Positions 2,112 through 51,802 of a stretch of 52,616 nt of DNA are shown here, piece by piece; the stretch's first letter is position 1; each line of letters starts with the position of its first letter. The stretch is taken from the IMG/VR virus record IMGVR_UViG_3300034117_000572, positions 1-52,616 of that record, one strand, 5' to 3'. The notes under the pieces are model-generated. The model was not told where the DNA came from. It ran no database searches and saw only the letters and a program-made list of their open reading frames with translations. This stretch comes from a virus. Its lineage: Duplodnaviria; Caudoviricetes. The position numbers and the translations under genes are program-made.

Positions 2112-2113
2112 TC

Positions 2114-2442: not shown

Positions 2443-2548
2443 ATAAATAGACAATCAAAATGCTTGGAGCAATATTAAAAAACTTACACACCTTATGTGC
2501 ATTATCACAATCCCTGCTATCTATTTTTATTATAGATTTATGTCTCAT
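2441..2548 (-). CDS. Possible 35-aa peptide (MRHKSIIKID...)
   Basis: Own translation; TAATG overlap with upstream glycosyltransferase; fills the gap to the terminator. Confidence 0.3.
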   Translation of the reverse strand: MRHKSIIKIDSRDCDNAHKVCKFFNIAPSILIVYL

Positions 2549-3300
2549 TAATTTATATCAAGTTTACCAAAGCCTTTGTGTATCACTTTAATAGGTTGTT
2601 TAGATTGCTTATACATTTCATCTAATGTAATAAACTTATTATATTCTTCAAAATCTGGTTGAATATAAAATTTACCATTAGTAAGTTGCATGTCTCTTAA
2701 TTGAATTCTTGCAATGTTTTCTATAGTGTTATCATCAGTGAATGTAAGATGATAATTAATACCTCCATAATTATATACATAATCAAGATTATCAAAATCA
2801 GAATATTCCATCTTCTTAGGCATATTGTCTAAGAAATGTCTATCTTCTCCTGAATTAACAGGATGTTTATATCCACCACTTTCAAAAAATCCTTTACGTG
2901 TAAAAGATACAACGTTTAATCCAGAGTCAGCTACAATAAATTCATTACCATAAAGACTATAACTTTTAAGATTTCTGTATAAGTTAATCTCAGGATTCTC
3001 TTCATGGACCTTTACACAATTTGCTATTCTATTAGGAAGAAATATATCATCATCATCATGATTTAGATATAGATCGTGATAACCTAATTGTACAGCTAAG
3101 TTTTTCTTTTGACCTATAAGTACTTTTTTACTCATATTAATCACTGTAACATTAGGATGTTCACAAACTAATGTAATGTTCTTATCATCGTTAACGATAA
3201 CAAGCTCCTTATCATCATAATTTTGAGATAAGAAGCTAGCTAATGCTCTTCCTAAAAATGGTAATCTACCATATGTAGGAATTATTGTTAATGTCTTCAT
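2548..3300 (-). CDS. Family 2-like (GT-A) glycosyltransferase
   Basis: IIPTYGR, ELVIVNDD, HDDDD (DxD) and GED motifs. Confidence 0.9.
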   Translation of the reverse strand: MKTLTIIPTYGRLPFLGRALASFLSQNYDDKELVIVNDDKNITLVCEHPNVTVINMSKKVLIGQKKNLAVQLGYHDLYLNHDDDDIFLPNRIANCVKVHEENPEINLYRNLKSYSLYGNEFIVADSGLNVVSFTRKGFFESGGYKHPVNSGEDRHFLDNMPKKMEYSDFDNLDYVYNYGGINYHLTFTDDNTIENIARIQLRDMQLTNGKFYIQPDFEEYNKFITLDEMYKQSKQPIKVIHKGFGKLDIN

Positions 3301-3816: not shown

Positions 3817-3836
3817 GATTATATATTTTTTAGAGT

Positions 3837-4952: not shown

Positions 4953-5342
4953 TTATTTCTTTTTAGAAATCTTCATACCTCTTTTAGCTGTCATCTTAGT
5001 AGCACCAAGTTGTTTGTCTGGAGTGAGAGAAGCTTTACCTCTAGCACCAGCTAATGCATTCTTTTGAACTTTAGTCCAAGCACCACCAACGTCTGTACCT
5101 TTATCTCTTTTGTTAGAAGCAGTAAGTCCAGATAAAGAACCACCGTTTTTCATTTTAGAAGCAGCACCTCTAGCATTCATTGCTCTATTAGCTCTTCTAA
5201 CCATTCTTCCTTCAACTTTAGAAGCTCTTTCAGGGTTAGTTTCCTTAATTCTACCAAGTCTTTTTTGTTGTCTTTTATTTTCTTTAACAACTTTAGCTCC
5301 TATAGAATCTCCATCTTGAGCTTTTTTAATCATTTTTGCCAT
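4953..5342 (-). CDS. Basic protein, putative internal virion protein
   Basis: K/R-rich; KKAQDG, MKNGG and AKRG motifs. Confidence 0.7.
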   Translation of the reverse strand: MAKMIKKAQDGDSIGAKVVKENKRQQKRLGRIKETNPERASKVEGRMVRRANRAMNARGAASKMKNGGSLSGLTASNKRDKGTDVGGAWTKVQKNALAGARGKASLTPDKQLGATKMTAKRGMKISKKK

Positions 5343-5587: not shown

Positions 5588-5818
5588 TTATTCTGCTGTA
5601 GGAGCTTCTACTTCTTTAATGATATCAGCTTCTACACCTTTAATCATTAATTCTTCAATTGCTTGATTAGCTTGCATCATTAATTGAAACCTTGCAGCTT
5701 CTTCTGATGATAAATAAGCTCTAACTGTGTTTAAAAACAGTCCAAACTGTTGTCCTGTTAGTGTGAATGTGTCTTCAGGAGTCCAAGTGTACCTTTTTGC
5801 AGGATCATACTGTGCCAT
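5588..5818 (-). CDS. Hypothetical acidic protein
   Basis: Likely start MAQYDP at 5818 after an A-rich leader and a promoter-like element. Confidence 0.7.
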   Translation of the reverse strand: MAQYDPAKRYTWTPEDTFTLTGQQFGLFLNTVRAYLSSEEAARFQLMMQANQAIEELMIKGVEADIIKEVEAPTAE

Positions 5819-5844
5819 AATATAATTGGTTTTAAAATTAACAG

Positions 5845-5876
5845 TAAAAGTAAATAATGTTTTTTTAATAACCAAA
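5845..5876 (-). promoter_or_regulatory. Bacteroidota sigma-A-like promoter (variant)
   Basis: TTTG-N20-TACTTTTA; consensus is TTTG...TAnnTTTG. Confidence 0.5.
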
Positions 5877-5881
5877 TATAT

Positions 5882-6562
5882 TTAGTATGTTTTGTTTAGT
5901 ACAAAAATATCACTGTATATATTGTTACCAGCATTATTGCTTCCCCATTGTACAGTGACATCTAATACGTTACTGATTGTTGTATTAAATGTTGTGTTAT
6001 TCACTACATTAAAAGCAAATCCTTGAACAGAAGCATTGTTAGTTTTTGTATAATGAAATGCTCCTAACGACACAATAGAAGCTACACCAGCAGTTCCAAC
6101 TTGTCTAATAGTGAAATCAATATTTAAACTCCAAATGTCATTTATAATTGCATTTGTTAAAGATTGAACACCACTATCTAATAATGTAATAGCTCCTGCT
6201 TTAACTCTAATTCTAATAGTTTGATTATTAGCAGCATTCATAACACCACCAAATATAGCTCTGTAACTATCTCCTATTTGAAATCCATTTGCAGGAACTG
6301 TTAATGTTCCTACACCACCATTTATCAATGTAGATTCTACAATAGTTCCTGATATAATAGTTGAATTGCCTGTTTGAGCAAATAATCCACCTGCAGGACC
6401 TGGAGGTCCAGGATTACCTTGTGGACCTTGTGGACCAGTAGGACCTTGTGGACCAGGAACCACTCTTGAATTTACAAATTCATCAAGATTTAGCCATCCT
6501 TTGTATCCTTTACAAGGTTTACATAGTTGTTCCCAAAATCCTGCTTTTATAAATGTTGACAT
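5882..6562 (-). CDS. Collagen-repeat fibre/decoration protein
   Basis: GPQGPTGPQGPQGNPGPPGPAG (Gly-X-Y)7 followed by a beta-rich domain. Confidence 0.75.
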   Translation of the reverse strand: MSTFIKAGFWEQLCKPCKGYKGWLNLDEFVNSRVVPGPQGPTGPQGPQGNPGPPGPAGGLFAQTGNSTIISGTIVESTLINGGVGTLTVPANGFQIGDSYRAIFGGVMNAANNQTIRIRVKAGAITLLDSGVQSLTNAIINDIWSLNIDFTIRQVGTAGVASIVSLGAFHYTKTNNASVQGFAFNVVNNTTFNTTISNVLDVTVQWGSNNAGNNIYSDIFVLNKTY

Positions 6563-6563
6563 A

Positions 6564-6848
6564 TTATTCTAAGTTTATTTCAAATGTTATTACTGAACTT
6601 GTTGTTATTGATTTACTCATGTCCACTCTAATTTTAAACATGTTACAGAACTTTAGTATTTCTTCTATAAGCATATTGTTATACTTAGGAAGACTTGCTG
6701 CTATTCTAAATCTATAAGAGTCTGAAAGTTTTGTTATCTCTAAGCTACATAGTTCATCTACAGAAGATATTACACCTTCTAAGTGAGCAAGAAAAACTTC
6801 ATCGTTATCTTGCATCACTTTAGGAAAATGTTTTTTGTTAATGTCCAT
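6564..6848 (-). CDS. Hypothetical protein
   Basis: Closely packed co-oriented ORF. Confidence 0.7.
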   Translation of the reverse strand: MDINKKHFPKVMQDNDEVFLAHLEGVISSVDELCSLEITKLSDSYRFRIAASLPKYNNMLIEEILKFCNMFKIRVDMSKSITTSSVITFEINLE

Positions 6849-7265
6849 TTATGACAATGTTAATAGATATTTAGTTTTAGCTGCTTCTCCTGATAATGCA
6901 TCTGCTAGATTACATACATCATGGAAACTATTCTTCTCACCATACATTTTTAAATCTGATGCAAATGACATAAGATCTGATACACATTGCTCAGGTTTGC
7001 AGTTGGTAAGAGGTTCAATCTTATAAAGGCCAGGTCTTTTACCTGTATATCCCATAATCTTCTCAACAACACCATCTTTGAAATCTTGCACATATTCATA
7101 CAATTTTCCAAGAGCTTTATGTTCTGCATAGCTAGTTGTTTGCCAATGTAGCAAATGTAATTGCTCATGAAAGTAAGTAAGCTTTGCAGCTATAATTTCT
7201 ATTGTTAAACTAGAACTTCCTTTCGATTCCATCATGTCTTCAGGAAATAGGGATTTTATTGCCAT
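6849..7265 (-). CDS. Ferritin/Dps-like protein (DUF5856-like)
   Basis: Likely start MAIKS at 7265; HLLHWQTTSYAEHKALGKLYE...D..VE...G and terminal KYLLTL motifs. Confidence 0.8.
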   Translation of the reverse strand: MAIKSLFPEDMMESKGSSSLTIEIIAAKLTYFHEQLHLLHWQTTSYAEHKALGKLYEYVQDFKDGVVEKIMGYTGKRPGLYKIEPLTNCKPEQCVSDLMSFASDLKMYGEKNSFHDVCNLADALSGEAAKTKYLLTLS

Positions 7266-7266
7266 T

Positions 7267-7590
7267 TTAGAATCTTGTTTGTTTATGCTCACCGTTAACT
7301 CTATAGTTAAGAATACCTGATAATGTTTCTTCATTGATAGCAGTATCAAATGATATTAATTGATAAGTATCAGTTTCTTTTAATGCAGGTTTAACTTCTT
7401 CATATTTAGCTTGTGCCAAAGCAGCATCTTCTTCTTGAGCTACAGTTTCTCTTAATGATTTGATTTCATTAATTAACTCTATTTTAGCTTCTTCATCTGT
7501 TGACATTAATAAAGCTATTTGCTCTTCTGTCAATTCAACTTGGTTTAATTCAATCCAAGTTCCTTCTGTTGTTGATTGTAAATTTTTCAT
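7267..7590 (-). CDS. Acidic hypothetical protein (possibly fibre-associated)
   Basis: Glu-rich ORF downstream of the fibre and glycosyltransferase genes. Confidence 0.65.
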   Translation of the reverse strand: MKNLQSTTEGTWIELNQVELTEEQIALLMSTDEEAKIELINEIKSLRETVAQEEDAALAQAKYEEVKPALKETDTYQLISFDTAINEETLSGILNYRVNGEHKQTRF

Positions 7591-7608
7591 ATTTTTATTT
7601 ATTATTAA

Positions 7609-8319
7609 TTAATTAATTTTTCCTTTAAATCCATAATATCCATAATGTGTAACTTCTGGATAAGACACTGCAAATATTTTATACATATTTTCCCTTGCAA
7701 TTTTACAAAAGTTATAATCTTCAGATAGTAAATTATCTTCTTCATCAATACTGGTAGTCCAAAATTCTGAAATTTTACTTCCCATTTCAATACCTAACAT
7801 TGCACCTGAATTGTTTTTATATGAATTTACTTTATCTGCTAATGAATGTAACACTTCTTTTTTAATTATCATCATACCTGTTCCTACACATTTAACTTCG
7901 AAAATATCATAGTTAGATATATCTTGGTTTAAAGGATTGATATTAAAATAACCTGAGTAGTTTTCTAAATCTGTTTTACCAAACTCTAAAGCAATTTTTA
8001 CAGAATCCCAGTTAATTCTTTTCATTGGAACTAATGCTCCAATTATATCCTTATCTTCTTTTATCATCCTATCTATGTCAGTTGCTCTAAAAGATTGATC
8101 AGAATCTATAAAAACTAAATAATCTGATTTCTCCTGTAAAAATTTTTCAGTTAGTGTATTTCTTGCTCTTGTTATTAAGCTTTCATTATACAATGGGCAA
8201 TACTTAACTCTATATCCTAGTTTTGGTAACTCTTGAAAAGCTTGTAATAAACTATCAGTGAATGCACCAGTACACACGCCATTATACATGGGTGTTGCTA
8301 TGAATATTTCTTTATTCAT
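7609..8319 (-). CDS. GT-A fold glycosyltransferase
   Basis: Likely start MNKEIF at 8319; IATPMY, SLITRARN, FIDSD (DxD), GTGMMII and SEDYNFC motifs. Confidence 0.8.
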   Translation of the reverse strand: MNKEIFIATPMYNGVCTGAFTDSLLQAFQELPKLGYRVKYCPLYNESLITRARNTLTEKFLQEKSDYLVFIDSDQSFRATDIDRMIKEDKDIIGALVPMKRINWDSVKIALEFGKTDLENYSGYFNINPLNQDISNYDIFEVKCVGTGMMIIKKEVLHSLADKVNSYKNNSGAMLGIEMGSKISEFWTTSIDEEDNLLSEDYNFCKIARENMYKIFAVSYPEVTHYGYYGFKGKIN

Positions 8320-8321
8320 TA

Positions 8322-9242
8322 TTAAGGCCTTCTTGTTATAAACTCTGTATTCCCTTCTATGCAACCAGCTATCACTCCGCCTGATGCGGTTAAAGTATTA
8401 CTATCAGGTAAACTATTTGAAGTGACTCTTGAATATAACAATATTCCACTTAAACTGGCAAAGCTATTTGGTCCGCCTACACAATTTGTAAATGTTCCAG
8501 CTGCATTTCCATATAATCCAAAAGAATTACTTCCTGCTGTGCAATTTGTAAATACACCAGATAATATTGGTCCAATTCCTAATGAAGGATTACCAAAAGA
8601 GGAATCACCTGCTTTACAATTAATAAATGTTCCTGGTATAATAGCTGTACTAACTTTACCAAAAGAAAAATTTCCTCCTTCACAATTAATAAATGTTCCT
8701 GATAGAATAAAAACTCCATTAGACGAAAATGAATCTTGACCTCCTTTACAATTTTCAATAATTGTATTAGACCCTCCAAGAACACTGAAAGTTTTTTCAC
8801 CACAATCTACACCTTTTACGTATGTATCAAAAGTTAAAACAAAAATGGAGCCATTTGTATAACTTACACCATCAAAAGTATGGTTGAATATAATACTTCT
8901 ATTTCCATCTAAGGATACTAAATCAATATATGGAGCGTCCATAAGAAATTGACTTGTTCCAAAATCATAATTTCCTGGAGCTGCTATTACAGTGATTCGG
9001 TTTGTTGCACTTGGAGACATTGTTTGAGCCAAATTATAAGCTGCTTGTAATTCTGCTGCATTTTCTACATCTGTACCATTTGCTGCTACAAATACATAAT
9101 TTGTTCCTCCTATTCCTGCTGCTAAATTTGCAATGTCCTGAGCTGTTGTTTTAACTGTAGAACCTGATTGTACAATAGGAAGAGTTTCTGTTCCTGTTAA
9201 GGATGCAGCTGCTGTGAGCTGACTAATTTTTATGTTTGCCAT
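8322..9242 (-). CDS. Tail fibre/spike with beta-helix repeats
   Basis: N-terminal MANIKISQL...PIVQSG.TVK fibre motif; repeated GTFxNCxxGxxSFG units. Confidence 0.75.
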   Translation of the reverse strand: MANIKISQLTAAASLTGTETLPIVQSGSTVKTTAQDIANLAAGIGGTNYVFVAANGTDVENAAELQAAYNLAQTMSPSATNRITVIAAPGNYDFGTSQFLMDAPYIDLVSLDGNRSIIFNHTFDGVSYTNGSIFVLTFDTYVKGVDCGEKTFSVLGGSNTIIENCKGGQDSFSSNGVFILSGTFINCEGGNFSFGKVSTAIIPGTFINCKAGDSSFGNPSLGIGPILSGVFTNCTAGSNSFGLYGNAAGTFTNCVGGPNSFASLSGILLYSRVTSNSLPDSNTLTASGGVIAGCIEGNTEFITRRP

Positions 9243-9259
9243 TTTTATTTTGTTTTATA

Positions 9260-9487
9260 TTATTCTATAATTAAATTGTTATTATCTTCTGTCATGATGG
9301 AATCATAGTTTTCTGTTGATATAAAATTACCAGCTACATAATTACAACATTCCTTAGCATCTATTTCTTGCCAGTTACCCACCTTTGGTTTAAATGCTTG
9401 CACAATTAAACTACTTGATACAATACGTCCTGAACCATCAAAACGTACAAAAGCTTTAAGCTTATTATTGTTATTACTTCTTGCCAT
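9260..9487 (-). CDS. Small structural protein, paralog A (acidic TE-repeat tail)
   Basis: LKAFVRFDGSGRIV...KPKVG.W.EI...ECCN core shared with 9490-9699. Confidence 0.75.
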   Translation of the reverse strand: MARSNNNNKLKAFVRFDGSGRIVSSSLIVQAFKPKVGNWQEIDAKECCNYVAGNFISTENYDSIMTEDNNNLIIE

Positions 9488-9489
9488 GA

Positions 9490-9699
9490 TTATCTAGGTC
9501 CTGTGGTTGTTGTAGTAGTTGTTGGTGCAGCTGTAGTGGTGGTTGTTGTTGTTGGATTACAGCACTCATATGCTGGAATCTCTTTCCATTTTCCTACTTT
9601 TGGCTTATTTTTTCTAAGGATTAAGCTTCCTGCAACTATTCTGCCAGATCCATCGAATCTAACATAAGCCTTTAAAGGTCTTGAATTAATGCTTCCCAT
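9490..9699 (-). CDS. Small structural protein, paralog B (poly-Thr tail)
   Basis: Same core followed by CCNPTTTTTTTAAPTTTTTTTGPR. Confidence 0.75.
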   Translation of the reverse strand: MGSINSRPLKAYVRFDGSGRIVAGSLILRKNKPKVGKWKEIPAYECCNPTTTTTTTAAPTTTTTTTGPR

Positions 9700-9715
9700 T
9701 GTTTAAAATTTATGG

Positions 9716-10732
9716 TTAATAGTTTAGGTTATATTTTTCTTTTATTTCATTTAATTTAGTGGCATAAAACCACGTACAAAACTTTTTAGATGATTCATTA
9801 TTAAGAATCATATCTAAGTTAGGATCTTTTGTTGGATCTGTTCCCATGTGATATTTTCCTTTATAGAAAGCTGGGTAACCATTTCCTGTTTCAGAAACTA
9901 TTCCTGCATTATGAAAGATTGTGTGAGACTCTAGTTTTGTAATAGGGTCTGATGCCCATGCAAAATTTAATTCAGGAACCACTTTAGTTTCTCCATCTCT
10001 CAACCAAATGTTCCAAAGAACAGCCCACATATCAGCACACCAACTTTGAAAGCCTGTGTTCTCATCTTTAAAGAATTCTCTATTTACTTTCTGTAAATAT
10101 GTTCTTATAAGAATGCAATCATTCATCACCTTACTCCAGAAGTCACCATCTACATTCTTTAATAGATATTGTGCTCCTCCTGAATGATCATTATTAGATT
10201 CACATACTTCTCTACTGATTCCTATAACACTTGCTATTTCAGCAAGTATATCTCTATTCTTATATTCTTCTAGTTTTTCTGGTAACACTTGATTCACCTT
10301 ACTATCAAAATAATTAGCATTGATGTAGCTATTTGTATCTGATAGATAGTTTATGTCGTCTTCTAAGAATTGATCTACATTGAAATCTTTCATAAAAAGA
10401 ATATCAGAGTCACAATAGAATATTGCTTTCTCACTTAACTCTGGATGTTTCTTGAAATGTTTCCAAAGAACATATGGTCTAAGTATAGGAATATAGATTC
10501 CAATTAATCGATTCAAATTATCTTCATCAGCATAGTAATGAAACTCAGCTTCTGGATATAGGTCTTCGATTTGTTTCCATTTATCTCTATTCTCTCTTCC
10601 TTTAGGGGTGAAAATTAAATTAATTGCTTTATCAGAATGTCCTATCTCTTTAAGACTTTCCATCCAAAGATTTACTTGCCATGTATAATAGATGTCACTT
10701 GGACACGCTTGAACAAATTTTAAATCTTTCAT
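9716..10732 (-). CDS. Glycosyltransferase resembling plant peptide O-glycosyltransferases (HPAT GT95 / SERGT GT96)
   Basis: Ordered motifs YYTWQV, LRPY, CDSDIL (DxD), GGAQY, WCADMW and H-N parallel recalled HPAT/SERGT motifs YxxWQ, N(R/K)P, DxD-like, WxxEMY. Confidence 0.6.
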   Translation of the reverse strand: MKDLKFVQACPSDIYYTWQVNLWMESLKEIGHSDKAINLIFTPKGRENRDKWKQIEDLYPEAEFHYYADEDNLNRLIGIYIPILRPYVLWKHFKKHPELSEKAIFYCDSDILFMKDFNVDQFLEDDINYLSDTNSYINANYFDSKVNQVLPEKLEEYKNRDILAEIASVIGISREVCESNNDHSGGAQYLLKNVDGDFWSKVMNDCILIRTYLQKVNREFFKDENTGFQSWCADMWAVLWNIWLRDGETKVVPELNFAWASDPITKLESHTIFHNAGIVSETGNGYPAFYKGKYHMGTDPTKDPNLDMILNNESSKKFCTWFYATKLNEIKEKYNLNY

Positions 10733-10762
10733 AATGTAGTTGGTTTAATGTATAATTACTAT

Positions 10763-10930
10763 TTACGGTGTGGTAGTAGTAGTTGTTGTTGGTGCAATTG
10801 TAGTACTACTAGTTGTAGTGTACGTATTACCAGCACCTGTCACTTTGATAAGTTGCTCTAATTGTTTAGAAATTTGCCACAATAAGTTGTCTGTAGTACT
10901 CCAACCTATCTGTTTTGATGGTATTGCCAT
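10763..10930 (-). CDS. 55-aa protein with poly-Thr tail (not in ORF track)
   Basis: Own translation MAIPSKQIGWSTTDNLLWQISKQLEQLIKVTGAGNTYTTTSSTTIAPTTTTTTTP; lies directly after a promoter. Confidence 0.8.
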   Translation of the reverse strand: MAIPSKQIGWSTTDNLLWQISKQLEQLIKVTGAGNTYTTTSSTTIAPTTTTTTTP

Positions 10931-10949
10931 AATGTATATTTTTAAGTAT

Positions 10950-10980
10950 CAAAGATATAAGTTTTTAAACTTATTTACAA
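10950..10980 (-). promoter_or_regulatory. Bacteroidota sigma-A-like promoter
   Basis: TTG-N20-TATCTTTG upstream of ATG 10930. Confidence 0.65.
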
Positions 10981-11008
10981 TGAATGTTGTTAAATTAAAA
11001 TAATTGAT

Positions 11009-11233
11009 TTAGTTAAATCTTAGTATATGTAAAATAATTGAAGGGATTATAGTTGCTATTATGTCTTTATAATCAAATCCTTTGTACGTGATTTCATCTT
11101 TTATTTCTTTACCTAAAGCAAATAAAAAAACAATTGCCATACTATAATAATCATTAAAGAAGTATTGACTCAATATAAATATAAAGAATCCATAAATAAA
11201 ATGATTTGCTTTATCAATTGGTATTAACATCAT
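11009..11233 (-). CDS. Small membrane protein (VanZ-like DKxxH motif)
   Basis: DKANHF, hydrophobic helices, KE..D and D..DI motifs. Confidence 0.6.
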   Translation of the reverse strand: MMLIPIDKANHFIYGFFIFILSQYFFNDYYSMAIVFLFALGKEIKDEITYKGFDYKDIIATIIPSIILHILRFN

Positions 11234-11255
11234 TCTATTATTTGTTTTAAAAATG

Positions 11256-11396
11256 TTATCTACCTTGACCTACATTCTTCTTTTTGTAATTCTTAGAAGA
11301 TTTTAAGTTAGATGTTTGAGATTTAGCGTGCACATTAGGTCTGCTCACTTTAATTTTCACCTTCTTTTCTGAAGTGTTGTTGGTTTGTTTTGCCAT
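11256..11396 (-). CDS. Small basic protein, 46 aa (not in ORF track)
   Basis: Own translation MAKQTNNTSEKKVKIKVSRPNVHAKS...KNYKKKNVGQGR; GQGR end is recurrent in small basic phage proteins. Confidence 0.7.
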   Translation of the reverse strand: MAKQTNNTSEKKVKIKVSRPNVHAKSQTSNLKSSKNYKKKNVGQGR

Positions 11397-11397
11397 G

Positions 11398-11871
11398 TTA
11401 AAATAATTTATATTCCAAAATTACACTGTATCCTGGAGGATTGTTTGGTTGTACGAAATATTGAGCTCCTACATTAAATCTAACAAACTCTAACATGAGA
11501 TTTGTATATAAAGTGGGTTCTCTTAATGTAAATCTTGTTGATTGAGTACCAAGATATCCATGCACCTCAAAAGGTTTCTTATTCTTGATAATCTCTTTAT
11601 GAATATCAATCATACTCTTTTGATGGAATATGATTGAATCTTTTATATCTAGTTTGTTTTGGAATTCAATTTCCTTCTTCTGGAAGTTCTTGATTCTAAC
11701 TTCTTGTTCTTTAATCACTTGTTTAGCAAAATCATAACGTACAAGATCTGTAGCTACAGCTCTAGCTTGTGCTTCTGTTAGAACAACAACACTATCTTTC
11801 TGGATAACGGTCTGAGAAGAAACTTTGAAGCCCACTAATAGGAAGACTATCAATAACTTTAACTTGTACAT
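11398..11871 (-). CDS. Secreted coiled-coil protein with C-terminal beta strands; putative outer-membrane spanin component
   Basis: Signal peptide without lipobox Cys, coiled coil, amphipathic strands ending YSVILEYKLF; overlaps upstream gene by 80 nt. Confidence 0.5.
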   Translation of the reverse strand: MYKLKLLIVFLLVGFKVSSQTVIQKDSVVVLTEAQARAVATDLVRYDFAKQVIKEQEVRIKNFQKKEIEFQNKLDIKDSIIFHQKSMIDIHKEIIKNKKPFEVHGYLGTQSTRFTLREPTLYTNLMLEFVRFNVGAQYFVQPNNPPGYSVILEYKLF

Positions 11872-12118: not shown

Positions 12119-12586
12119 TTATTTGTATGGTACATAGCTTGTTTTACCACCTGACTTAACAGCTCTTAATATTTGTTTACGTTGCTTACCAGTTGATTTG
12201 TACGATACATGAACCCAATCAGGATTAACACTAGTTCCAAATTCCCAAATCAATTGATCAAAGACTAATTTGTCTTTTATAAAATCAAATATCATCTTGT
12301 TTGTAATTCCATTAGCACTACCATCCATATCAATATCAATTGCTTCACCTGAGCAATGTTGGCTGGTTGCACTACCTTTGATCACTTTATTCAAAGCATC
12401 ACTTCTGTAACCAGAAGATATGTGAATAGGTTTACCGAAGTGTTCTCTAATAGGTTGGAAAATATTTTCAGCTAACTTTTTAAAGTTTCCAATGTGTTCA
12501 GGAGTAGGCGTATTGCTTATTCCAAATCTTTTTGCAGTTTCACTTCTTATTACTTCTGCTAATGATAAGTTTTCTGATAATTGCAT
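12119..12586 (-). CDS. Endolysin, peptidase M15A-type Zn peptidase
   Basis: SGYRS, SQHxxGEAxD and WVHVS motifs. Confidence 0.9.
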   Translation of the reverse strand: MQLSENLSLAEVIRSETAKRFGISNTPTPEHIGNFKKLAENIFQPIREHFGKPIHISSGYRSDALNKVIKGSATSQHCSGEAIDIDMDGSANGITNKMIFDFIKDKLVFDQLIWEFGTSVNPDWVHVSYKSTGKQRKQILRAVKSGGKTSYVPYK

Positions 12587-40335: not shown

Positions 40336-41201
40336 TACTTATAACTTATTTGTGCAGGTGTTAATATAAATTGAGACACTAAATGTGTTGTTGCAGAGTT
40401 ATCAAGAATGTGTCTCACCTTCAATTCTTTTGCTCTTATTGTAGCTTTCTTAAAGCTTCTCACTCCATAATCCATGTTCTCTTGATTCACCACTTTATCT
40501 ATTGACATAGACTCACATGACACTCTAAACAATGGAACCTGAGAACTCTTCTGTAATGCCCAAAATGTATTGTACTGATAGAAGTTATCACTTTTAGTAT
40601 AAGTGATTGTTTTACTATCTGTATTGTATATTGGATATTGCATATATGCACTCATGTTGTTTAATGGTTTAGCAACAAGCTCAAGAATACCAGAACTTTG
40701 TTGTCCATTATATAGAATAGCTTTGTTAAACCATTTATCATTTGTTTCTATTCTTACATTGTCATTAAATACACCATCAGATATAGGAAGATATTCGTAT
40801 GCCTTAGTGTAATCTTTTACATTCTGTAGGATTTCATCTTGATATTGATATGCAAATGGATATTCAATAATGTATGGTTTTATATTATTATAAAAATAAT
40901 TATAAATTCTTATATTATTTAAATGTGTCCATAGACATGCTGTCTTTGATTGTGTATATCCAACACTTGCATAATCTATAAAACTTATTTCTTCTAAAGA
41001 AAAAGATTTTTCAAAAGGACATTCACCAATAGATTTAATTATTATAACAGTACTGGCAACATCAACAAGATATGTCTTACCTCTTATTAACTCTTTTCTA
41101 CTTACATTTTCATCAAGTACATTTCTAAAGTTATCAAGAACACTAAAAGGTCCTGCATTAGGACCTGTTTGTGTTAGCTTTATTGTAATTTCTCTTTCCA
41201 T
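40335..41201 (-). CDS. Separated C-terminal part of tail stabilisation/muzzle protein with extra N-terminal small domain
   Basis: Likely start MEREI at 41201 (TAATG); LWTH..YNYFY, FNKAILYN.QQSSG motifs recalled from crAss-like stabilisation protein C-termini. Confidence 0.6.
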   Translation of the reverse strand: MEREITIKLTQTGPNAGPFSVLDNFRNVLDENVSRKELIRGKTYLVDVASTVIIIKSIGECPFEKSFSLEEISFIDYASVGYTQSKTACLWTHLNNIRIYNYFYNNIKPYIIEYPFAYQYQDEILQNVKDYTKAYEYLPISDGVFNDNVRIETNDKWFNKAILYNGQQSSGILELVAKPLNNMSAYMQYPIYNTDSKTITYTKSDNFYQYNTFWALQKSSQVPLFRVSCESMSIDKVVNQENMDYGVRSFKKATIRAKELKVRHILDNSATTHLVSQFILTPAQISYK

Positions 41202-44200
41202 TATATTGTAGTTGTTGTAGTGGTAGTTGGACAATCAATTACATCTGTACAAGCATCTCCACATGCTTCTATAAATATATAACCATCTTCTTCAGAAACA
41301 AAATAAATTGATTCAAACTGAGCACATAGAACAATTGAATAATCATCTACATTGTATTTATCTAATTGATTAATTGTTCCAGTTCCATCTACCCAGAATA
41401 ATGTCAAGTTACCATACATTTGAACTGTATAACAGAATGTATTAGGAACAAATGTAGTAGTTGTTGTTGTAGTGCTACAATCATATATTCCAACTATCAT
41501 TCCGTTTTCAATTTCATAAACAGTGTTATAGAAAGAACTTTCTTGTGTAAAATAGAATCCATCAGGAACTGTTGTACAATCTGTAGAAGTTGAATCTAAA
41601 TAAACAATTTGACCAAGCTCTAATGAAAAATAAGAAATTGATATTGAATTTATATTAACATAATTTAAATCAACTGAATTTAAATAAGCAATTCCTGCAC
41701 AAGCATCTTCTGAACTACCTGTTGTAATAACTTCAGGACCACAACTTTCTAAATATCCTGTAATAAATTCTGATGAATTAGGAACATTACTTCTTTGACA
41801 TATTGTAGTAGTTGTTGTAGGAGGAACTGTAATGTAACCATCTCCATCTAACTCACAACTTGTTTCAATAACCACTCCTTCTAATTCACAATCTAATCCT
41901 AGTGTACTAGTAGTAGTAGTTGTAGGTAAAGGTATAATTGTTGTAGATGTAGTGGTAGTAGGAATTATTCTATTTATTTCTCCAACTAATGCTTCGAATG
42001 TAGATTCAGCATTAACATCATCACAACAACCATTAAGTCCTGAATAGAAGAAATTATTTTCTCCTATATAGAAATTAGGAATATAACTATGAAAACTCAC
42101 CCAAGACTTAGTATTAAAATTAAATGATATAGTCCAAGACTTGTTACAGAAGAACTCAGAATCATCCAAGTAAACTTGATCTCTAAATGTAAAGTCATTT
42201 ATTGTAGATTCTAAATAAAATTCTTTTGTGACATCATCATATTTAATATCATTATCTAAAGGAATGTAATCTAGTTTAGTAATAATAATTCTATCAAACT
42301 TACTATCATATACACCATGTAAACCAATACCATTGAAATGATTATCTATATCTGCTTTTGGAAAATATCTAAGTATCTCAAATGATAAATGGTCTGTCAT
42401 AAATCTATTTACACCAGAACCAAATGCTGTTAAATCTACAGCCTGTGTTCCTGATATAAGAAATATTTGTCCACGTTTAGCATCAACAGTTATTTGTCCT
42501 TGAGGAATCTTTAATAAGAATTTATTCTGACTTCCTACATAACCAAGATCTGTTTCAGCAAAATCAATTGGAGGAGCACTTCTAAACAATGATGGATTAC
42601 CAATATAAGCCGCCTGTGGATTACTTGTATCAATTGTAAGCATTGTATTATACAATAATGATTTGTTTTCAAATCTAGCTAATATGGCTTTATTTTGAAT
42701 ACCATCTAACGATGTTAATCCTCCATAGTTTTGAGGAAAATCAAAATATGAAATTGCTCTATATATTAACCAGTTATTCACTCTGTTATCAGTATCAACA
42801 ACTTGAACATCTGAGTATATAGCTCTGAACGGATATTCTGTAAAACATTTACTATCCCAATCATTAGGAAGATGTGAGAAGAAGTTCTCTTTGTTTTGTT
42901 TAGAAAACGTTACATTATAATAATAAGTGTTATCTTGTTCAATAGGAACAAAAGATTGTTGTACCCAATCATCAGGAATACCAGATGAAACATGTGGCCA
43001 GAAATCTCCTTCTCTATTATTAAATGCTTGACGAAGATCAAGATTGTAAGATGTCTCACAATAGAAACTAGGTACCCCATATGCAAACATATAGAAATAT
43101 CCATCATAGTAAGTTAACTCACTTGGAGAATTAGAATTAGTATATTGTGATGTATCATTAGGACAATCAAAACTAGTAGCTTTATAAGATATAAAATTTG
43201 TAAGACTACCAACACTTGATAATATACTTCTTGCAGAATGCCAATATTTTGGGTAGGCAATGTTTCCTATGACATCATAAAACACATCTGAATCATCAGG
43301 AGCATTCACTCTATTTTCTAAAAAGAATGGAAGCTTTGTTTTATATGCAAATCTAGAAATAAATGTATCACCACCAAATACAGTAGCTTCAGTTGGATTA
43401 GTACCATTAAATATTAATTGAAATCCTGTATCAATTGTGACATAAGAATATATTTGTCCCCATTGAGTTGGAGCTATATTTTTTAAAGATCCATAATAAG
43501 AAACAACTTCTATGTCTTGTTCTCTCTCTGGTGTAGAACAAGCATTTGACTCACTTATTGTAAATCTAGAATAATCACTAATTAAAGGTTGTCCTAAATA
43601 CAATAATGAATCCGTTTGATTTGGAAAAGGAAGACCTGATTTATCTATATTAGTTTTTAAATAAACAGATGTTTCTCTATTAAAGTTATTTATATTATTA
43701 TCATCTCCTACATTTTGTACACCTGGAATTAAATATCTTTGTATATCAAGATCTCTTTGTTTTATACCAAGATTATTATTTATTGGTGAAGAATAAGAAT
43801 AACTAGCTCTAGAATTAAATGAATAAGCATAATTCTTTCTTGTAATACCATTTATATAAATAGTTAGATATGCTTGATATGCAGCAAACATTGCTGATAC
43901 ATTACCATCTGAAATAATAAAAGAGCTATTTAATGCAACTTCTTGTGCCTCTTTAGAAAGTAATCTGTATTTAGCATTATCTCTCACCTCTACAAAGTGT
44001 GCTCTTCCAGCACCATACATTACATTTTCAAGTTTTAATATGTCACCTAAAAATGGTTGTCCAAAAGATGTTTCTGGAGAATTAAATATTTGTCTAGTTC
44101 TAGCAATATCATTTGAAGGTATAGGAGGTTGTGGAGTTTCTTTTTTACAATCATCCACTCTAACTTGTCTCTCTAAATAAATGGTTTGTTGTTTATCAGA

Positions 44201-46531
44201 TCCTCTACATTCTTGAGGTTCTCCACTTCCTGCAACAGTATTTACTTGTATCTCTGATGTACGTGTAACCCAAGGTCCTTCAATACTTCCTTCTATAGCA
44301 TCAAGCCAACAAGCTGCAAATCCAGCATTATTAAGTCCAAGAGAATTTTGACCTATTTTAATTGCCCAAATATCATAATTTGCGTATGAAGAATAAGCTT
44401 TAGTTTTTTCACTTTCAGGAAAATTATTTCCAAATATTGATGGATTTACTCCCCAAGGAACTGGACCACTATTTGTTTGTTTCATTTTATTAAAAGGTCC
44501 TTGTCCTAAAAACGTAGGCTTTGTGATAGAACAAACTCTATGTGCACCTAATTCATAAAACTTTTCATTACGAATTTTGTTTGTATTACAATCCGTGTAC
44601 TGAACTTCCATGTAAGGACCATCAACATCTACATTGTTAAATTGTAAAATAATTACATCAAAAGGTTCACATACTTGTGAATATGCATTATTTTGTGCAT
44701 TTAAAAAAGGATCTGCTGCAAGATCATTGTATGGATAGTTTGGATAATAAAAAGTTTCTTCTTGCCTTTCGTATGTTCCTACATTACGTAACATACCTTT
44801 AGCAACAATAGATCTATTTGTACTTCTATCTCCTCTTACTATTTTAAATCCTACAATTTGTGCTTTCTCTTCTCTAGTTAAATTAGAAGAATTTATAAGT
44901 TGTTTAATTTGGTTAACATTTATCTTTACACCAATTGGATAAATAGCATTACTTGTTTGTAACTCCACTTCATATTTATCAGCTACAAATTTTGGAACAG
45001 CTGATTCAAATGCAGGACTAACTAATATATCTGGAAATTTATGATGTCTAATAGGTTGACCAGCAAGATCACCCCATATCTTTTTATTACAAGGATATGT
45101 TTCTTCAGATTCCCAATATGCAAATTCTCCAAATTCATATGGTCCTTTATAATCAGGAGCATTTGTAAATCCAGGATGTGTACCTAATACAGAACCTGTA
45201 TTATATATTTTCCAATAAGGACTTGATCCTGTAATTGGATCAGGAATACCTATAAAATCTGGATTAGATGGAAATACGTTTGGTTGTGAAAACTCATTAT
45301 TATTCTGTGTTCTACCAGGAATATGGAAACCATCTGTTTGTTTTCCATTATCTAATAAAAATACTACTTCAAAGGCATACACTTCATCACGTAAGTATCC
45401 ACGTAAATTTGTAGCATTGAATTCATCTGAGTAATTTTCTGTAGCAGGTATTCTCCAAGTCTCCCATAGTAAAGTAATTTGATTAGCTATCTCTTGATAA
45501 TTAACTCTATCAATAGCTGAAAGTTGATCCCATATAAGTACATCTTGTGCTACAGTAATATCTTGTGCTATATCATAATAAGGAAACTTTTCAAATATGT
45601 CATCTATAGAAAGTCTTATGTTAGTAACATTCTGACCTGTGTATGTTATTTTTCTAAATAAATTATCAATATAATATGTTCCTAATAATTCAACTGAAGC
45701 AACATTGTTTATTGTTTTAATTACAGCTAAATTAAAATATTGAAACTGTCCTGATGTTTCAAGGTTAGAAACATTAACAATTATAGATTTCCCTACATTA
45801 TAATTAAAGTTAACTGTAGTGACACCTGGATCAGCTATAGGACAAGGATTTGTTACTGAATAATAACTTGTATAAGGATTACCAGAAATGTCTGAATACT
45901 GAACTGCAAACTGATATGTACCAGCAAGAAGTTCTCCTCCAGAAACAACATCTACAACTTCTAATTGAGGAATACTAAAGTCTGGTTGTATTTTTAGTTT
46001 GTTACAATCTAATTCATTGGTTACAATTACATCACATGTGTTAGGAACAATTTCTGTTATATAAGGAATTTTATCAATATCCATATATCTTCTAGCATTA
46101 ATTCCATCTGTCCAATATATCTCTGTAGCACAATTTGTTATTCTGTGTACCACTTTATGTATTGGATAATTTATACTAAAGTTAAGACAATCTGCATTTA
46201 TTAAAGTGCGATAGATACAATCATTATTATCCATGTATCCTATCTCACTTTGTGCTGTAGAAGAATTTGTTAGAAAGAATATGTGTTTACTTTTTTCTTG
46301 TATGTAATAATCTCCTATCAAAGAATATCCATTAGGAAAACTAACGCACAATTCATTACCTGGTTCATTTTGATAGTTAACAGAGTTTGCATCAAAGTTT
46401 TCTAAAGCAGCATTTAATGCATACGTAAGAGTACCTGGTTTAATCTGATTAACAGATTGATCCATGTTTAGTCCTACAGTGGCACTATTATATTCTTGTC
46501 TAATATTTCCTTGTTGTGTTTCTTCAGCCAT
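41201..46531 (-). CDS. Tail stabilisation/muzzle protein (crAss-like) with Cys/Thr-rich C-terminal extension
   Basis: GLNMD..YALNA, IYWTDG, RDEVY, IRHHKFP, FGGDTFI, WTISF..WVSFHSY.P motifs. Confidence 0.75.
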   Translation of the reverse strand: MAEETQQGNIRQEYNSATVGLNMDQSVNQIKPGTLTYALNAALENFDANSVNYQNEPGNELCVSFPNGYSLIGDYYIQEKSKHIFFLTNSSTAQSEIGYMDNNDCIYRTLINADCLNFSINYPIHKVVHRITNCATEIYWTDGINARRYMDIDKIPYITEIVPNTCDVIVTNELDCNKLKIQPDFSIPQLEVVDVVSGGELLAGTYQFAVQYSDISGNPYTSYYSVTNPCPIADPGVTTVNFNYNVGKSIIVNVSNLETSGQFQYFNLAVIKTINNVASVELLGTYYIDNLFRKITYTGQNVTNIRLSIDDIFEKFPYYDIAQDITVAQDVLIWDQLSAIDRVNYQEIANQITLLWETWRIPATENYSDEFNATNLRGYLRDEVYAFEVVFLLDNGKQTDGFHIPGRTQNNNEFSQPNVFPSNPDFIGIPDPITGSSPYWKIYNTGSVLGTHPGFTNAPDYKGPYEFGEFAYWESEETYPCNKKIWGDLAGQPIRHHKFPDILVSPAFESAVPKFVADKYEVELQTSNAIYPIGVKINVNQIKQLINSSNLTREEKAQIVGFKIVRGDRSTNRSIVAKGMLRNVGTYERQEETFYYPNYPYNDLAADPFLNAQNNAYSQVCEPFDVIILQFNNVDVDGPYMEVQYTDCNTNKIRNEKFYELGAHRVCSITKPTFLGQGPFNKMKQTNSGPVPWGVNPSIFGNNFPESEKTKAYSSYANYDIWAIKIGQNSLGLNNAGFAACWLDAIEGSIEGPWVTRTSEIQVNTVAGSGEPQECRGSDKQQTIYLERQVRVDDCKKETPQPPIPSNDIARTRQIFNSPETSFGQPFLGDILKLENVMYGAGRAHFVEVRDNAKYRLLSKEAQEVALNSSFIISDGNVSAMFAAYQAYLTIYINGITRKNYAYSFNSRASYSYSSPINNNLGIKQRDLDIQRYLIPGVQNVGDDNNINNFNRETSVYLKTNIDKSGLPFPNQTDSLLYLGQPLISDYSRFTISESNACSTPEREQDIEVVSYYGSLKNIAPTQWGQIYSYVTIDTGFQLIFNGTNPTEATVFGGDTFISRFAYKTKLPFFLENRVNAPDDSDVFYDVIGNIAYPKYWHSARSILSSVGSLTNFISYKATSFDCPNDTSQYTNSNSPSELTYYDGYFYMFAYGVPSFYCETSYNLDLRQAFNNREGDFWPHVSSGIPDDWVQQSFVPIEQDNTYYYNVTFSKQNKENFFSHLPNDWDSKCFTEYPFRAIYSDVQVVDTDNRVNNWLIYRAISYFDFPQNYGGLTSLDGIQNKAILARFENKSLLYNTMLTIDTSNPQAAYIGNPSLFRSAPPIDFAETDLGYVGSQNKFLLKIPQGQITVDAKRGQIFLISGTQAVDLTAFGSGVNRFMTDHLSFEILRYFPKADIDNHFNGIGLHGVYDSKFDRIIITKLDYIPLDNDIKYDDVTKEFYLESTINDFTFRDQVYLDDSEFFCNKSWTISFNFNTKSWVSFHSYIPNFYIGENNFFYSGLNGCCDDVNAESTFEALVGEINRIIPTTTTSTTIIPLPTTTTTSTLGLDCELEGVVIETSCELDGDGYITVPPTTTTTICQRSNVPNSSEFITGYLESCGPEVITTGSSEDACAGIAYLNSVDLNYVNINSISISYFSLELGQIVYLDSTSTDCTTVPDGFYFTQESSFYNTVYEIENGMIVGIYDCSTTTTTTTFVPNTFCYTVQMYGNLTLFWVDGTGTINQLDKYNVDDYSIVLCAQFESIYFVSEEDGYIFIEACGDACTDVIDCPTTTTTTTI

Positions 46532-50117: not shown

Positions 50118-50369
50118 TTAAAGTGGAATAGTAGTTGTAGTGGTTGTAGTAGAACCTAATACAATATCTATATAATTTGTACACACTCCAGTTGATAGCA
50201 CTCTAATAATTGTTGTATAATCAGGAACTAATGCAGAAGAATATCCTGCAAGTAATGCTGATTTAGAAACTCCCACTTCAAATGCTGATGAATATCCATC
50301 TAGATTTGAATATAAATTGAATGGACCTGAATCAGTTCCTGCTGTTGTTAATGTTATTAATACTGTCAT
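50118..50369 (-). CDS. Small beta-rich structural protein with poly-Thr tail
   Basis: Domain shared with N-terminus of 40335-41201; ends GSTTTTTTTIPL. Confidence 0.75.
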   Translation of the reverse strand: MTVLITLTTAGTDSGPFNLYSNLDGYSSAFEVGVSKSALLAGYSSALVPDYTTIIRVLSTGVCTNYIDIVLGSTTTTTTTIPL

Positions 50370-50380
50370 ATTATTCTAAA

Positions 50381-50668
50381 TTAAATTATTGTTGTTGTAC
50401 TAGTAGTTGTAGGACAACATATATCTAATTGATCATTGATGTTAATTACATCATCAATTATAATCATTAAGTCTTCAGTAAGATTTGTTATGTCTTCTGT
50501 AAGTATAGCAACATCAGCTGCAACATCACATATAATACTATCAAATTTAGCAAGAATTACATTTAAACCATCACATGTGCTTACATCTGTACAAGGAAGT
50601 GGAGTGCTATCGTATGTGACAGCACTCGTTCCTTTTATTGTTGTATTATTTATCTGAGGACAACTCAT
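50381..50668 (-). CDS. Cys-rich coiled-coil fibre-like protein with Thr tail
   Basis: Shared Y...L.C......D.L...L.K.D module, heptads, ends CCPTTTSTTTII. Confidence 0.7.
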   Translation of the reverse strand: MSCPQINNTTIKGTSAVTYDSTPLPCTDVSTCDGLNVILAKFDSIICDVAADVAILTEDITNLTEDLMIIIDDVININDQLDICCPTTTSTTTII

Positions 50669-50680
50669 GTCATGTTATAA

Positions 50681-51802
50681 TTAAGAAGTTGGACAACATT
50701 GTTCATATATTGAATAAGGAACAGAAAGAGAAACTATTATTCCATCAACTAATCCAGTAGCAGTTAATCCTGGAATAAAGTTTACACATCCTAGTAAATA
50801 AGATCCTGCATCTCTATAAATGTTCTCTTGAGGATCACCATCACAATCGTTAAAATTAATTGTAATTCGACCGTCATCAGTTACATCTAGTAATTCTTGT
50901 GATATAATTACAGCAGAGTCATAACATGTACATTCAACAACTGTTGTACTAGTTGTAGTGGTAGTAGGTGTAGGACAAACTTCATCTACACAATTAGCTC
51001 CTATTGTAATTAAAACTCTTTCATTATTTGCTAAAGTGCAACATCCACAAAATTGTATAGTTTGAAGAGGAGAAATATTTAATAATATTAATGAACCATT
51101 ACAATCAGTGTAAGTTAATGAATAAATATTAGTGTCATCAGTATTAACCGCTGTAATACATTCACAAGGAAGTGTAGTGGTTGTAGTGGTTGTTGTACTA
51201 CTAGTTGATGATGTAGTAGTTGTTGTTGGACCACAAGGACCATTTGGTGTAACAATCACTGTACCTGGAACAGTTAAAGGACTATCTGTTTCAACACAAA
51301 TATTTGTAACTCCTGGTTGTAATATTGTAGCAACGAATCCACCTGTAATACAATCAGTAGTAATTATAGCAACTGATTCAGTTCCAGTATTATCTAATGA
51401 AAAACTTTCACAAAGAATTGGTGCTACAGTAGTGGTTGTTGTAGTGGTTGCAGAACAACAAACATCTAGAGTGTTGTATATATTAATTATATCACCATTA
51501 ATTGTTACTATCTGTGTAGTAATATTGTTAACTTGAACAGTTAATATATTAATTTGTGTAAGTAGGTTACATATAATTTCATCAATCTTTTGTAATACAA
51601 CATTAAGTGTATCGCATGGTTCAGCTGTTGTGCAAGATAATGCAGGACCATCGTAAACAATAGTACTGGAACCAGTTAAAGTTGTTGAACATGGATTGTT
51701 ATTATTACAACCAGTATTGGTAATAACAGAACTACATCCACAAGGATCATTTATAACTATGTCTGTACAGCAAGGGTTTACTGGTAAATATGGATATGAC
51801 AT
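50681..51802 (-). CDS. Cys/Thr-rich mucin-like modular structural protein
   Basis: Shared module and coiled coil, then three small Cys domains separated by poly-Thr linkers. Confidence 0.75.
   Translation of the reverse strand: MSYPYLPVNPCCTDIVINDPCGCSSVITNTGCNNNNPCSTTLTGSSTIVYDGPALSCTTAEPCDTLNVVLQKIDEIICNLLTQINILTVQVNNITTQIVTINGDIINIYNTLDVCCSATTTTTTTVAPILCESFSLDNTGTESVAIITTDCITGGFVATILQPGVTNICVETDSPLTVPGTVIVTPNGPCGPTTTTTSSTSSTTTTTTTTLPCECITAVNTDDTNIYSLTYTDCNGSLILLNISPLQTIQFCGCCTLANNERVLITIGANCVDEVCPTPTTTTTSTTVVECTCYDSAVIISQELLDVTDDGRITINFNDCDGDPQENIYRDAGSYLLGCVNFIPGLTATGLVDGIIVSLSVPYSIYEQCCPTS

Follow-up and report, generated by a model that had tools for sequence, protein, structure and literature searches.

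The closest known system to the one described here is the virion glycosylation of mycobacteriophages, in which, according to two papers citing the original work, phage glycosyltransferase genes are tied to C-terminal modification of capsid and tail-tube subunits (Freeman et al. 2023, cited in PMC12619734, PMC13313380). In this study, we analysed a 52,616-nucleotide (nt) stretch of a virus of the Caudoviricetes (IMG/VR record IMGVR_UViG_3300034117_000572, positions 1 to 52,616; hereafter the window), in which the gene for a 338-amino-acid (aa) protein lies between two small genes whose products end in runs of threonine (Thr). Gene context and predicted fold make it likely that this protein is a phage protein O-glycosyltransferase acting on Thr tracts of virion proteins. 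Relatives of the enzyme were detected by tblastn in 77 cultured-phage records, none of them from a Mycobacterium phage, and the enzyme family is therefore a different one. The present case also differs from the mycobacteriophage type in its putative acceptor, a homopolymeric Thr block, in its hosts, which belong to the Bacillota and Bacteroidota, and in being known here from gene context and predicted fold. Moreover, Thr tracts are seen in the window phage only on a tail muzzle protein, fibre-like proteins and mini-proteins, the capsid gene lying outside the window.

The 338-aa protein matches phrog_4417, a family of unknown function (E 1.9e-55; residues 5-319 on profile positions 2-285 of 293), and no Pfam family at E <= 0.1, the Glyco_transf_8 and HPAT models included. 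Relatives at E <= 0.001 amounted to 2749 in a word-indexed search and to 775 cluster representatives in an exhaustive search; longer relatives are fused to GT2, GT6, GT7C, GT25, GT29 and GT61 domains and to methyltransferase domains. An alignment of 59 sequences of the family (A1) was the basis of an AlphaFold2 model (predicted local distance difference test, pLDDT, 96.5; predicted template-modelling score, pTM, 0.93) and of the residues found to be invariant, namely Y80, D108, D110, Y136, Q229, F257, H274 and K291. The DxD motif D108-S-D110 is also invariant at both aspartates in further sets of 60 and 13 relatives. On the evidence of this model the protein is a GT-A glycosyltransferase: Foldseek returned 147 matches in the Protein Data Bank (PDB) at E <= 0.001, with GT-A enzymes leading and glycogenin in first rank (E 5e-7, template-modelling scores 0.44/0.57). 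An independent all-against-all structural search of 48,161 solved chains gave Z scores of 10-14 against many GT-A families, with glycogenin at 14.3, LgtC and the Skp1 alpha-galactosyltransferase at 13.8, WbbM at 13.4, the catalytic domain of UGGT at 13.3, GlyE at 12.9, LARGE1 at 12.6 and the chlorovirus enzyme A064R at 10.8. The best structural match is not specifically a DNA- or lipopolysaccharide (LPS)-modifying enzyme, which agrees with the original prediction of a protein-directed activity; glycogenin, a protein-modifying enzyme, comes first, and LgtC, which modifies lipooligosaccharide (LOS), follows within 1 Z. A sequence-profile search of the PDB with A1 yielded only chance-level matches and no glycosyltransferase at E <= 10, and blastn of the locus region against cultured phages gave no match.

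In GT8 structures, a downstream His is the third metal ligand, a Lys contacts the diphosphate and a Gln lies near the anomeric carbon. H274, K291 and Q229 are invariant in the 59 sequences and may play these parts. With the GT8-type enzymes (glycogenin, LgtC, GlyE, UGGT) the protein shares the fold over most of its length (Z 12.9-14.3, 219-243 aligned residues) and the DxD motif, and its family has an invariant His, Lys and Gln that may correspond to theirs; it differs from them in its low identity (9-13%), in the lack of a Pfam Glyco_transf_8 match at E <= 0.1 and in a model that is about 80 residues longer than glycogenin. Judged from the model, the architecture of the enzyme is GT8-like and probably that of a retaining enzyme. 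Among the GT8-type enzymes, glycogenin and GlyE modify proteins or glycans carried by proteins. Pneumococcal GlyE, among the top fold matches (Z 12.9), belongs with GtfA/B to the serine-rich repeat adhesin pathway of Gram-positive cocci, which resembles the proposed system in its cytoplasmic, multi-enzyme O-glycosylation of long Ser/Thr-rich tracts. The substrate of that pathway is a bacterial adhesin exported by accessory Sec, in contrast to the phage proteins predicted here, and its priming enzyme is of the GT-B type. PBCV-1 A064R is likewise a virus-encoded GT-A enzyme for the virus's own capsid, but its fold match is weaker than that of the GT8 enzymes and the host of this chlorovirus is a eukaryote; the capsid glycans of PBCV-1 are N-linked and atypical.

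The plant and algal enzymes HPAT (GT95, PF23452) and SERGT1 (GT96) are thought to act on repetitive hydroxy-amino-acid tracts, as is proposed here for the phage enzyme. The original prediction had likened the 338-aa protein to them because of the order of its motifs. Membership of GT95/GT96 could not be established, and a resemblance to HPAT is only hinted at by protein-language-model features: among the 30 nearest named clusters in ESM-Atlas, 22 carry PF23452 in 10-58% of their members (score 0.97). The Pfam HPAT model itself is not significant on the window protein (no match at E <= 0.1) or on 58 of the 59 relatives (the other reached E 0.012), and another 60 relatives gave no match at E <= 0.01. 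PF23452 also found nothing in five homolog-bearing genomes and 401 Bacteroidota genomes, but the control genomes were equally silent, so that absence is not implied.

In the window, the genes for a 55-aa mini-protein, the 338-aa enzyme, a 69-aa mini-protein and a 75-aa protein follow one another on the minus strand in that order (Table 1). The original prediction of a DxD protein flanked by two poly-Thr genes is borne out by the open reading frames (ORFs) and by the motifs, with YYTWQV at residue 15, LRP at 84, DSD at 108 and WCADMW at 231; the 75-aa paralog of the 69-aa protein was absent from it. Counted as runs of at least five Thr in stop-to-stop frames of at least 30 aa, Thr tracts number 12 in the window, 2 in the reversed sequence and 0.04 on average over 50 shuffles of 3-letter blocks, and are thus far above chance. 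Within them, ACA, ACT and ACC occur 34, 32 and 11 times. Since the codons are mixed, with no single codon more than four times in a row, the tracts are not simple DNA (slippage) repeats. Inside the tracts, among them those at 9500-9560 and 10766-10820, ACC makes up 11 of the 77 Thr codons; four large genes of this phage, by comparison, use it for 6 of their 509 Thr codons, and the difference suggests that codon mixing within the tracts is under selection.

Several of the tracts lie on larger proteins. Four poly-Thr tracts lie within the C-terminal 240 residues of the 1776-aa muzzle homolog, and the final one forms the extreme end of the protein (TTTTTTTI-stop). Its Pfam crAss_MUZ match bears out the crAss-like assignment made earlier and means that a genuine virion protein of this phage bears the tag. 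A GIY-YIG-type homing endonuclease gene (38678-39298; phrog_314, E 7e-30) is found near the muzzle gene, and a 299-aa ORF (40335-41234) overlapping the muzzle gene end matches only the last ~190 of the 1783 positions of phrog_15100, a virion protein, which points to a possible splitting or rearrangement of the muzzle region. Further tracts are present on three small or modular proteins near the end of the window, of which the 373-aa Cys-rich one has no family match in Pfam or PHROG. Near-identical DNA was found in lake-water metagenomes, and five studies other than that of the possible source sample contain at least 60% of the sampled words. Complete relatives of the window phage measure 113-119 kb, with terminal repeats in two of them, so the capsid, portal and terminase genes are probably outside the 52.6-kb window.

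The two mini-proteins belong to families with a conserved front part and a variable tail. Related loci were retrieved with the single 338-aa protein and with a narrower alignment (A4). Family A, which includes the 55-aa protein, consists of an N-terminal module (MAIPSKQIGWS..LLWQISKQLE) followed by a poly-Thr tail; the module occurs in 73 of 80 related loci in 122 copies, 73 of them with an in-frame run of at least four Thr downstream. In the 69-aa protein of family B, a conserved module of ~45 aa ending in E-C-C precedes two TTTTTTT blocks with AAP between them, and 105 of the 143 copies of this module, in 77 of the 80 loci, have poly-Thr. Family B proteins of relatives contain one to four TTTTTTT-xAP blocks. 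In the phage mini-proteins, an invariant Cys-Cys stands directly ahead of the Thr run. The counterpart of the 75-aa paralog in relatives (MARSNNNNKLKAF...) does carry poly-Thr. A poly-Thr mini-gene lies immediately upstream of the enzyme gene in 34 of 76 assessable loci and immediately downstream in 50 of 77. Both modules are often multi-copy within a locus and sometimes head large fibre-like proteins (for module A, e.g., locus L015), and the order A-enzyme-B recurs in a Sediminibacterium-binned contig (locus L346) whose enzyme is 32% identical to the search query. From these sequences, the mini-proteins read as anchor-plus-tag proteins and as putative virion parts.

In cultured phages, the enzyme gene stands beside Thr-tailed structural genes. 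Siphophages that infect Enterococcus, Lactobacillus, Staphylococcus, Lactococcus and Clostridium make up most of the 77 records, which also include one Chryseobacterium phage, and Thr-rich tails or linkers adjoin the homolog gene in all nine lineages inspected. In phiFL1A, phiCTP1 and Lactococcus phage 1706, the tail-tube gene is immediately followed by the homolog; in bIL285 and VPE25, the capsid gene is. Poly-Thr ends both the tail-tube and the capsid protein of phiFL1A and the tail-tube protein of VPE25; Thr tails occur on the portal, a head protein and the tail tube of phiCTP1, on orf3, orf10 and the tail tube of 1706, and on the tail tube of bIL285. Arcanobacterium phage TPWB06 and Staphylococcus phage F1 have Thr tracts in the protease/scaffold region and the tail tube, and Chryseobacterium phage MA9V-3 has them on two genes directly upstream of the homolog. 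Although the 136 kb of Lactobacillus phage 521B hold no run of six Thr, its homolog is preceded by two genes with (TTV[AK]P)n repeats at their ends. Annotated holins with Thr-rich tails are also found in enzyme carriers (1706 orf3, L116 964-1368; 521B gp117, L114 10724-11335), so the tag may reach beyond virion proteins, or these annotations may be wrong.

Some tracts lie in a second reading frame. Poly-Thr frames overlap the 3' end of the VPE25 capsid gene (L003 4725-4880; -1 frame, at ...GCA AAG TAA) and, in +1, the 3' ends of the tail-tube genes of TPWB06 (L118 9660-9923, at ...CCC TAA) and Staphylococcus phage F1 (L119 9548-9922), and a similar overlapping frame is present at about 7190-7300 of locus L202. 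They look like programmed-frameshift extensions, which would add a longer Thr tag to a fraction of the subunits.

The presence of the tails follows the presence of the enzyme. Among loci fetched via the phiFL1A capsid protein, poly-Thr tails on both capsid and tail tube were found in 12 of 12 loci with the homolog and in 0 of 7 without it; this comparison leaves out two short contigs (L099, L100) and nine distant or partial capsid matches (L105-L113), none of which has enzyme or tract. Counted per locus, runs of at least five Thr number 3-6 with the homolog and 0 in 15 of 15 loci without. Complete loci fetched via the bIL285 tail-tube protein have the tails in 13 of 13 cases with the enzyme and in 0 of 56 without. 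Left out as partial were L133, which has enzyme and tail, and L134, L135, L137, L152, L159, L178, L183, L185, L197, L199, L205 and L206, which have neither. L134 lacks three things at once, the enzyme gene and the Thr tails of both capsid and tail tube, whereas its close relative L132 has all three; the tail-tube proteins of this pair are 97-98% identical to that of bIL285 (L134 98%). Two features are shared with the mycobacteriophage type: a glycosyltransferase gene within or next to the virion structural genes, which in five siphophage lineages immediately follows that for the capsid or the tail tube, and the presumed acceptor extensions on capsid and tail-tube proteins (all 12 phiFL1-like and all 13 bIL285-like enzyme loci).

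The association extends to wider samples. One sample comprised the query's own locus and diverse viral loci from the environment with enzymes 39-45% identical to the query, 80 in all; a Thr tract was present in 44 of them, against 7 in reversed-sequence controls, and lay within 1.5 kb of the enzyme gene in 42 (median distance 397 nt). In the window's own clade, the counts were 71 of 80 loci and 12 in the controls. Each of four complete relatives of 113-119 kb has a single enzyme gene and between 15 and 40 six-Thr DNA matches, against 0-4 in controls; almost all of these matches fall on the same strand, in all four that of the enzyme gene. The gut crAss phage cr108_1 has neither the enzyme gene nor six-Thr matches. 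Two divergent family representatives (P0269, P0230) found no viral contig when used as queries.

The co-occurrence of homologs with Thr-tract structural proteins had been set beforehand as a check of the original prediction. It was found in nine of nine lineages, with joint presence and absence within two, and this supports the core of that prediction, namely that the enzyme works on Thr tracts of phage proteins. The proposed link between enzyme and tracts is thus supported, while GT95/GT96 membership and the promoter discussed below are not established. It is likely that the enzyme, as a metal-dependent GT-A protein, O-glycosylates Thr runs of phage proteins within the cytoplasm, either ahead of virion assembly or in its course. 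The runs, typically TTTTTTT blocks with xAP or VKP spacers, would then serve as portable acceptor tags. In the Gram-positive siphophages, these tags would be C-terminal tails on major capsid, tail-tube, portal and decoration proteins; in the window phage, they would be the tails of the flanking mini-proteins, the linkers and tails of fibre-like Cys-rich proteins and the muzzle tracts. Two further glycosyltransferases of the window may extend the first sugar. Potentially, the product is a glycan brush for stiffening, protease protection, shielding or adhesion.

Several points weigh against this interpretation. The support comes from gene context and fold. The fold scores of LgtC (LOS) and WbbM (O-antigen) equal those of protein-modifying enzymes, and because of this the fold match cannot name the acceptor. 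No T>=5 tract was found in 36 of the 80 diverse viral loci (35 by a measure of 8 Thr in 12), and for 58 of 80 loci in bacterial genomes no Thr-rich frame turned up at a distance of up to 6 kb. All four VPE25-like loci have the enzyme, yet the tail tube of two carries only short Thr runs; in these two, the space between the capsid and enzyme genes does contain a poly-Thr frame. The phiFL1-like capsid tree holds two state changes, or one when well-supported branches alone are counted, so few that a sign test cannot reach significance, and the 13 enzyme-bearing lactococcal loci are near-identical members of one tight group. The major capsid gene of the window phage lies outside the window, and the mini-proteins are predicted products and putative virion components. 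When contigs from four metatranscriptome runs were compared at 85% likeness, two longer ones from relatives covered the genes of family B as well as the enzyme gene's 3' end, while most short pieces matched only Thr-coding repeats and probably come from other organisms; such contigs show presence in RNA libraries and prove neither transcription nor a single transcript, and stretches left uncovered carry no information.

The bacterial relatives of the enzyme raise another explanation. In Bacteroidota chromosomes, the homologs form the N-terminal half of 570-582-aa proteins with a second glycosyltransferase domain. LanC-like genes are found beside them in 16 of 80 loci, and in four loci (L307, L312, L313, L366) the neighbour is a small peptide with a double-glycine leader and a core containing Thr runs and several Cys. 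These clusters may represent a glycosylated class of lanthipeptide-like RiPPs (ribosomally synthesised and post-translationally modified peptides), and their context supports glycosylation of peptide Thr as the chemistry of the family. The same context raises the idea that the phage mini-genes encode precursor peptides of a RiPP-like glycopeptide system, whose released products would act on host or competitor cells by way of the same Thr O-glycosylation but for another purpose. The Cys-Cys ahead of the Thr run in the phage mini-proteins would fit this as well. We nevertheless regard it as improbable: the phage mini-proteins have no double-glycine leader, no LanC-like match was obtained among the 26 window proteins run through Pfam or PHROGs, relatives have large fibre-like proteins that start with module A or B, and the Gram-positive phages carry the tags on capsid and tail-tube proteins themselves.

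There is a similarly small chance that the enzyme acts on a non-protein acceptor, such as phage DNA bases or host teichoic acid, LPS or capsule, and that the Thr tracts are flexible linkers travelling along. The presence of LgtC and WbbM among the top fold matches and the many enzyme loci without a nearby Thr-rich frame are consistent with this idea, as is the fact that phage glycosyltransferases are best known for DNA glucosylation and serotype conversion (PMC12619734). It conflicts with the joint gain and loss of the enzyme gene and of tails on two separate structural genes, which a role as linkers alone does not predict. Serotype-conversion genes usually adjoin the lysogeny module, whereas in five siphophage lineages the gene lies inside the late structural operon, right behind that for the capsid or the tail tube. 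Temperate phages rarely have extensively hypermodified DNA, and several carriers (bIL285, phiFL1A) are temperate prophages. The two changes on the phiFL1-like tree and the single tight group of lactococcal loci would also be expected if enzyme and tracts were linked only through shared ancestry of mosaic structural modules, by few recombination events and with no functional meaning, but we give this very little credence, as the same association is found for hosts of two phyla, for genomes of podo-, sipho- and myovirus type and for enzymes only 29-45% identical, as the tagged proteins (capsid, tail tube, portal, muzzle, fibres) are not homologous to one another and as L134 lacks two tails on genes that are otherwise 97-98% conserved.

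The Thr-directed glycosyltransferase that we favour might be part of a broader scheme, which is offered as tentative and is, in our judgement, rather doubtful in its full extent. A two-part glyco-tag module, made up of an HPAT/GT8-like enzyme and poly-Thr cassettes, would have spread across phages of Bacillota and Bacteroidota and into RiPP-like clusters, and any protein acquiring TTTTTTT-xAP would be glycosylated. In crAss-like lake phages, free-standing anchor-plus-tag proteins of 55-90 aa would form glycan whiskers; in certain siphophages, the fraction of tagged subunits would be set by programmed frameshifting where the capsid or tail-tube gene ends.

The original prediction also placed a promoter at 10950-10980, ahead of the 55-aa gene. 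This was not confirmed: a scan of 9000-11400 found no sigma-70-like site on the minus strand there, and the region as a whole holds 8 such sites against 12.2 expected. A TAnnTTTG word, the -7 promoter consensus of Bacteroidetes, lies there and is a possible promoter element. The word precedes 7 of 39 minus-strand gene starts, compared with 2.5 +/- 1.5 for random placement, a modest enrichment.

In the window, the enzyme gene sits among fibre-like genes. The 306-aa protein downstream of the mini-genes has no significant Pfam or PHROG family and presumably resembles a tail fibre at its N-terminus. The 251-aa protein matches phrog_1574 (E 8.5e-33) and phrog_34859, annotated as glycosyltransferase (E 1.4e-4). 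It was rejected as a conserved partner of the enzyme, being found in 0 of 80 related loci, and is a candidate glycan-extending enzyme specific to the window phage. Just upstream of the locus, on the same strand, a Peptidase_M15_3 protein (12119-12586, E 6e-18) is likely an endolysin. A 226-aa protein (5882-6562) combines matches to tail-fibre PHROGs with a short G-x-y repeat of collagen-like type (Pfam Collagen at E 1.6e-3, below cut-off), and three consecutive, very basic Lys/Arg/Gly-rich proteins without family match (3454-3849, 4106-4789, 4953-5342) may be internal or DNA-associated virion proteins.

Table 1. Positions of the genes and sequence elements discussed, in the window and in bacterial loci with homologs of the enzyme.
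Sequence	Feature	Positions	Strand	Evidence or remark
Window	250-aa GT2-family glycosyltransferase, third in the window	2548..3300	-	PF00535, E 1.5e-13, 51.5 bits against a cut-off of 23.3
Window	251-aa second glycosyltransferase-like protein	7609..8364	-	Weak Pfam matches: Anp1 E 1.2e-5, GT2 E 1.1e-3, both below curated cut-offs
Window	306-aa protein downstream of the mini-genes	8322..9242	-	ORF; in 4/80 related loci
Window	75-aa family B paralog	9260..9487	-	ORF; without Thr tract, ends CCNYVAGNF...
Window	69-aa family B mini-protein	9490..9699	-	ORF; C-terminal end CCNPTTTTTTTAAPTTTTTTTGPR
Window	338-aa GT-A glycosyltransferase (by model), phrog_4417	9716..10732	-	ORF, PHROG, AlphaFold2 model
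Window	55-aa family A mini-protein	10763..10930	-	ORF; C-terminal end TTTSSTTIAPTTTTTTTP
Window	TAnnTTTG word, possible Bacteroidetes-type -7 element	10950..10957	-	19 nt upstream of the 55-aa ATG
Window	1776-aa crAss-like tail muzzle protein homolog	41201..46531	-	Pfam crAss_MUZ, E 9.3e-38
Window	83-aa protein	50118..50369	-	Tract scan; ends STTTTTTTIPL
Window	95-aa protein with C-terminal tract	50381..50668	-	Tract scan; ends CCPTTTSTTTII
Window	373-aa Cys-rich modular protein, three poly-Thr linkers	50681..51802	-	ORF, tract scan
L307	Leader-peptide gene	253-495		
L312	Leader-peptide gene	5636-5869		
L313	Leader-peptide gene	1948-2172		
L366	Leader-peptide gene	5609-5854		
L299 and L301	Two-domain homolog in LanC-like context	6001-7750		

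A literature search, largely without subscription journals, found no description of this enzyme family or of poly-Thr tails as phage glycosylation sites; an earlier description is possible. Taken together, the sequence comparisons suggest that sugar-coating by this enzyme and its Thr tags is widespread across many unrelated phages. If this is true, virion glycosylation would be a common trait, recognisable from the sequence, among phages of dairy, gut and environmental origin, well beyond the mycobacteriophages, and its carriers would include well-studied phages of Enterococcus (VPE25, phiFL1A) and Lactococcus (1706, bIL285) as well as abundant freshwater crAss-like phages. The cultured phages with homologs make the claim directly testable. 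It would give a function to phrog_4417, a large family, and provide a simple acceptor rule to predict which virion proteins are sugar-coated. Phage therapy would be concerned by way of phage stability, adsorption and immune recognition, as would the engineering of phage particles that display glycans.

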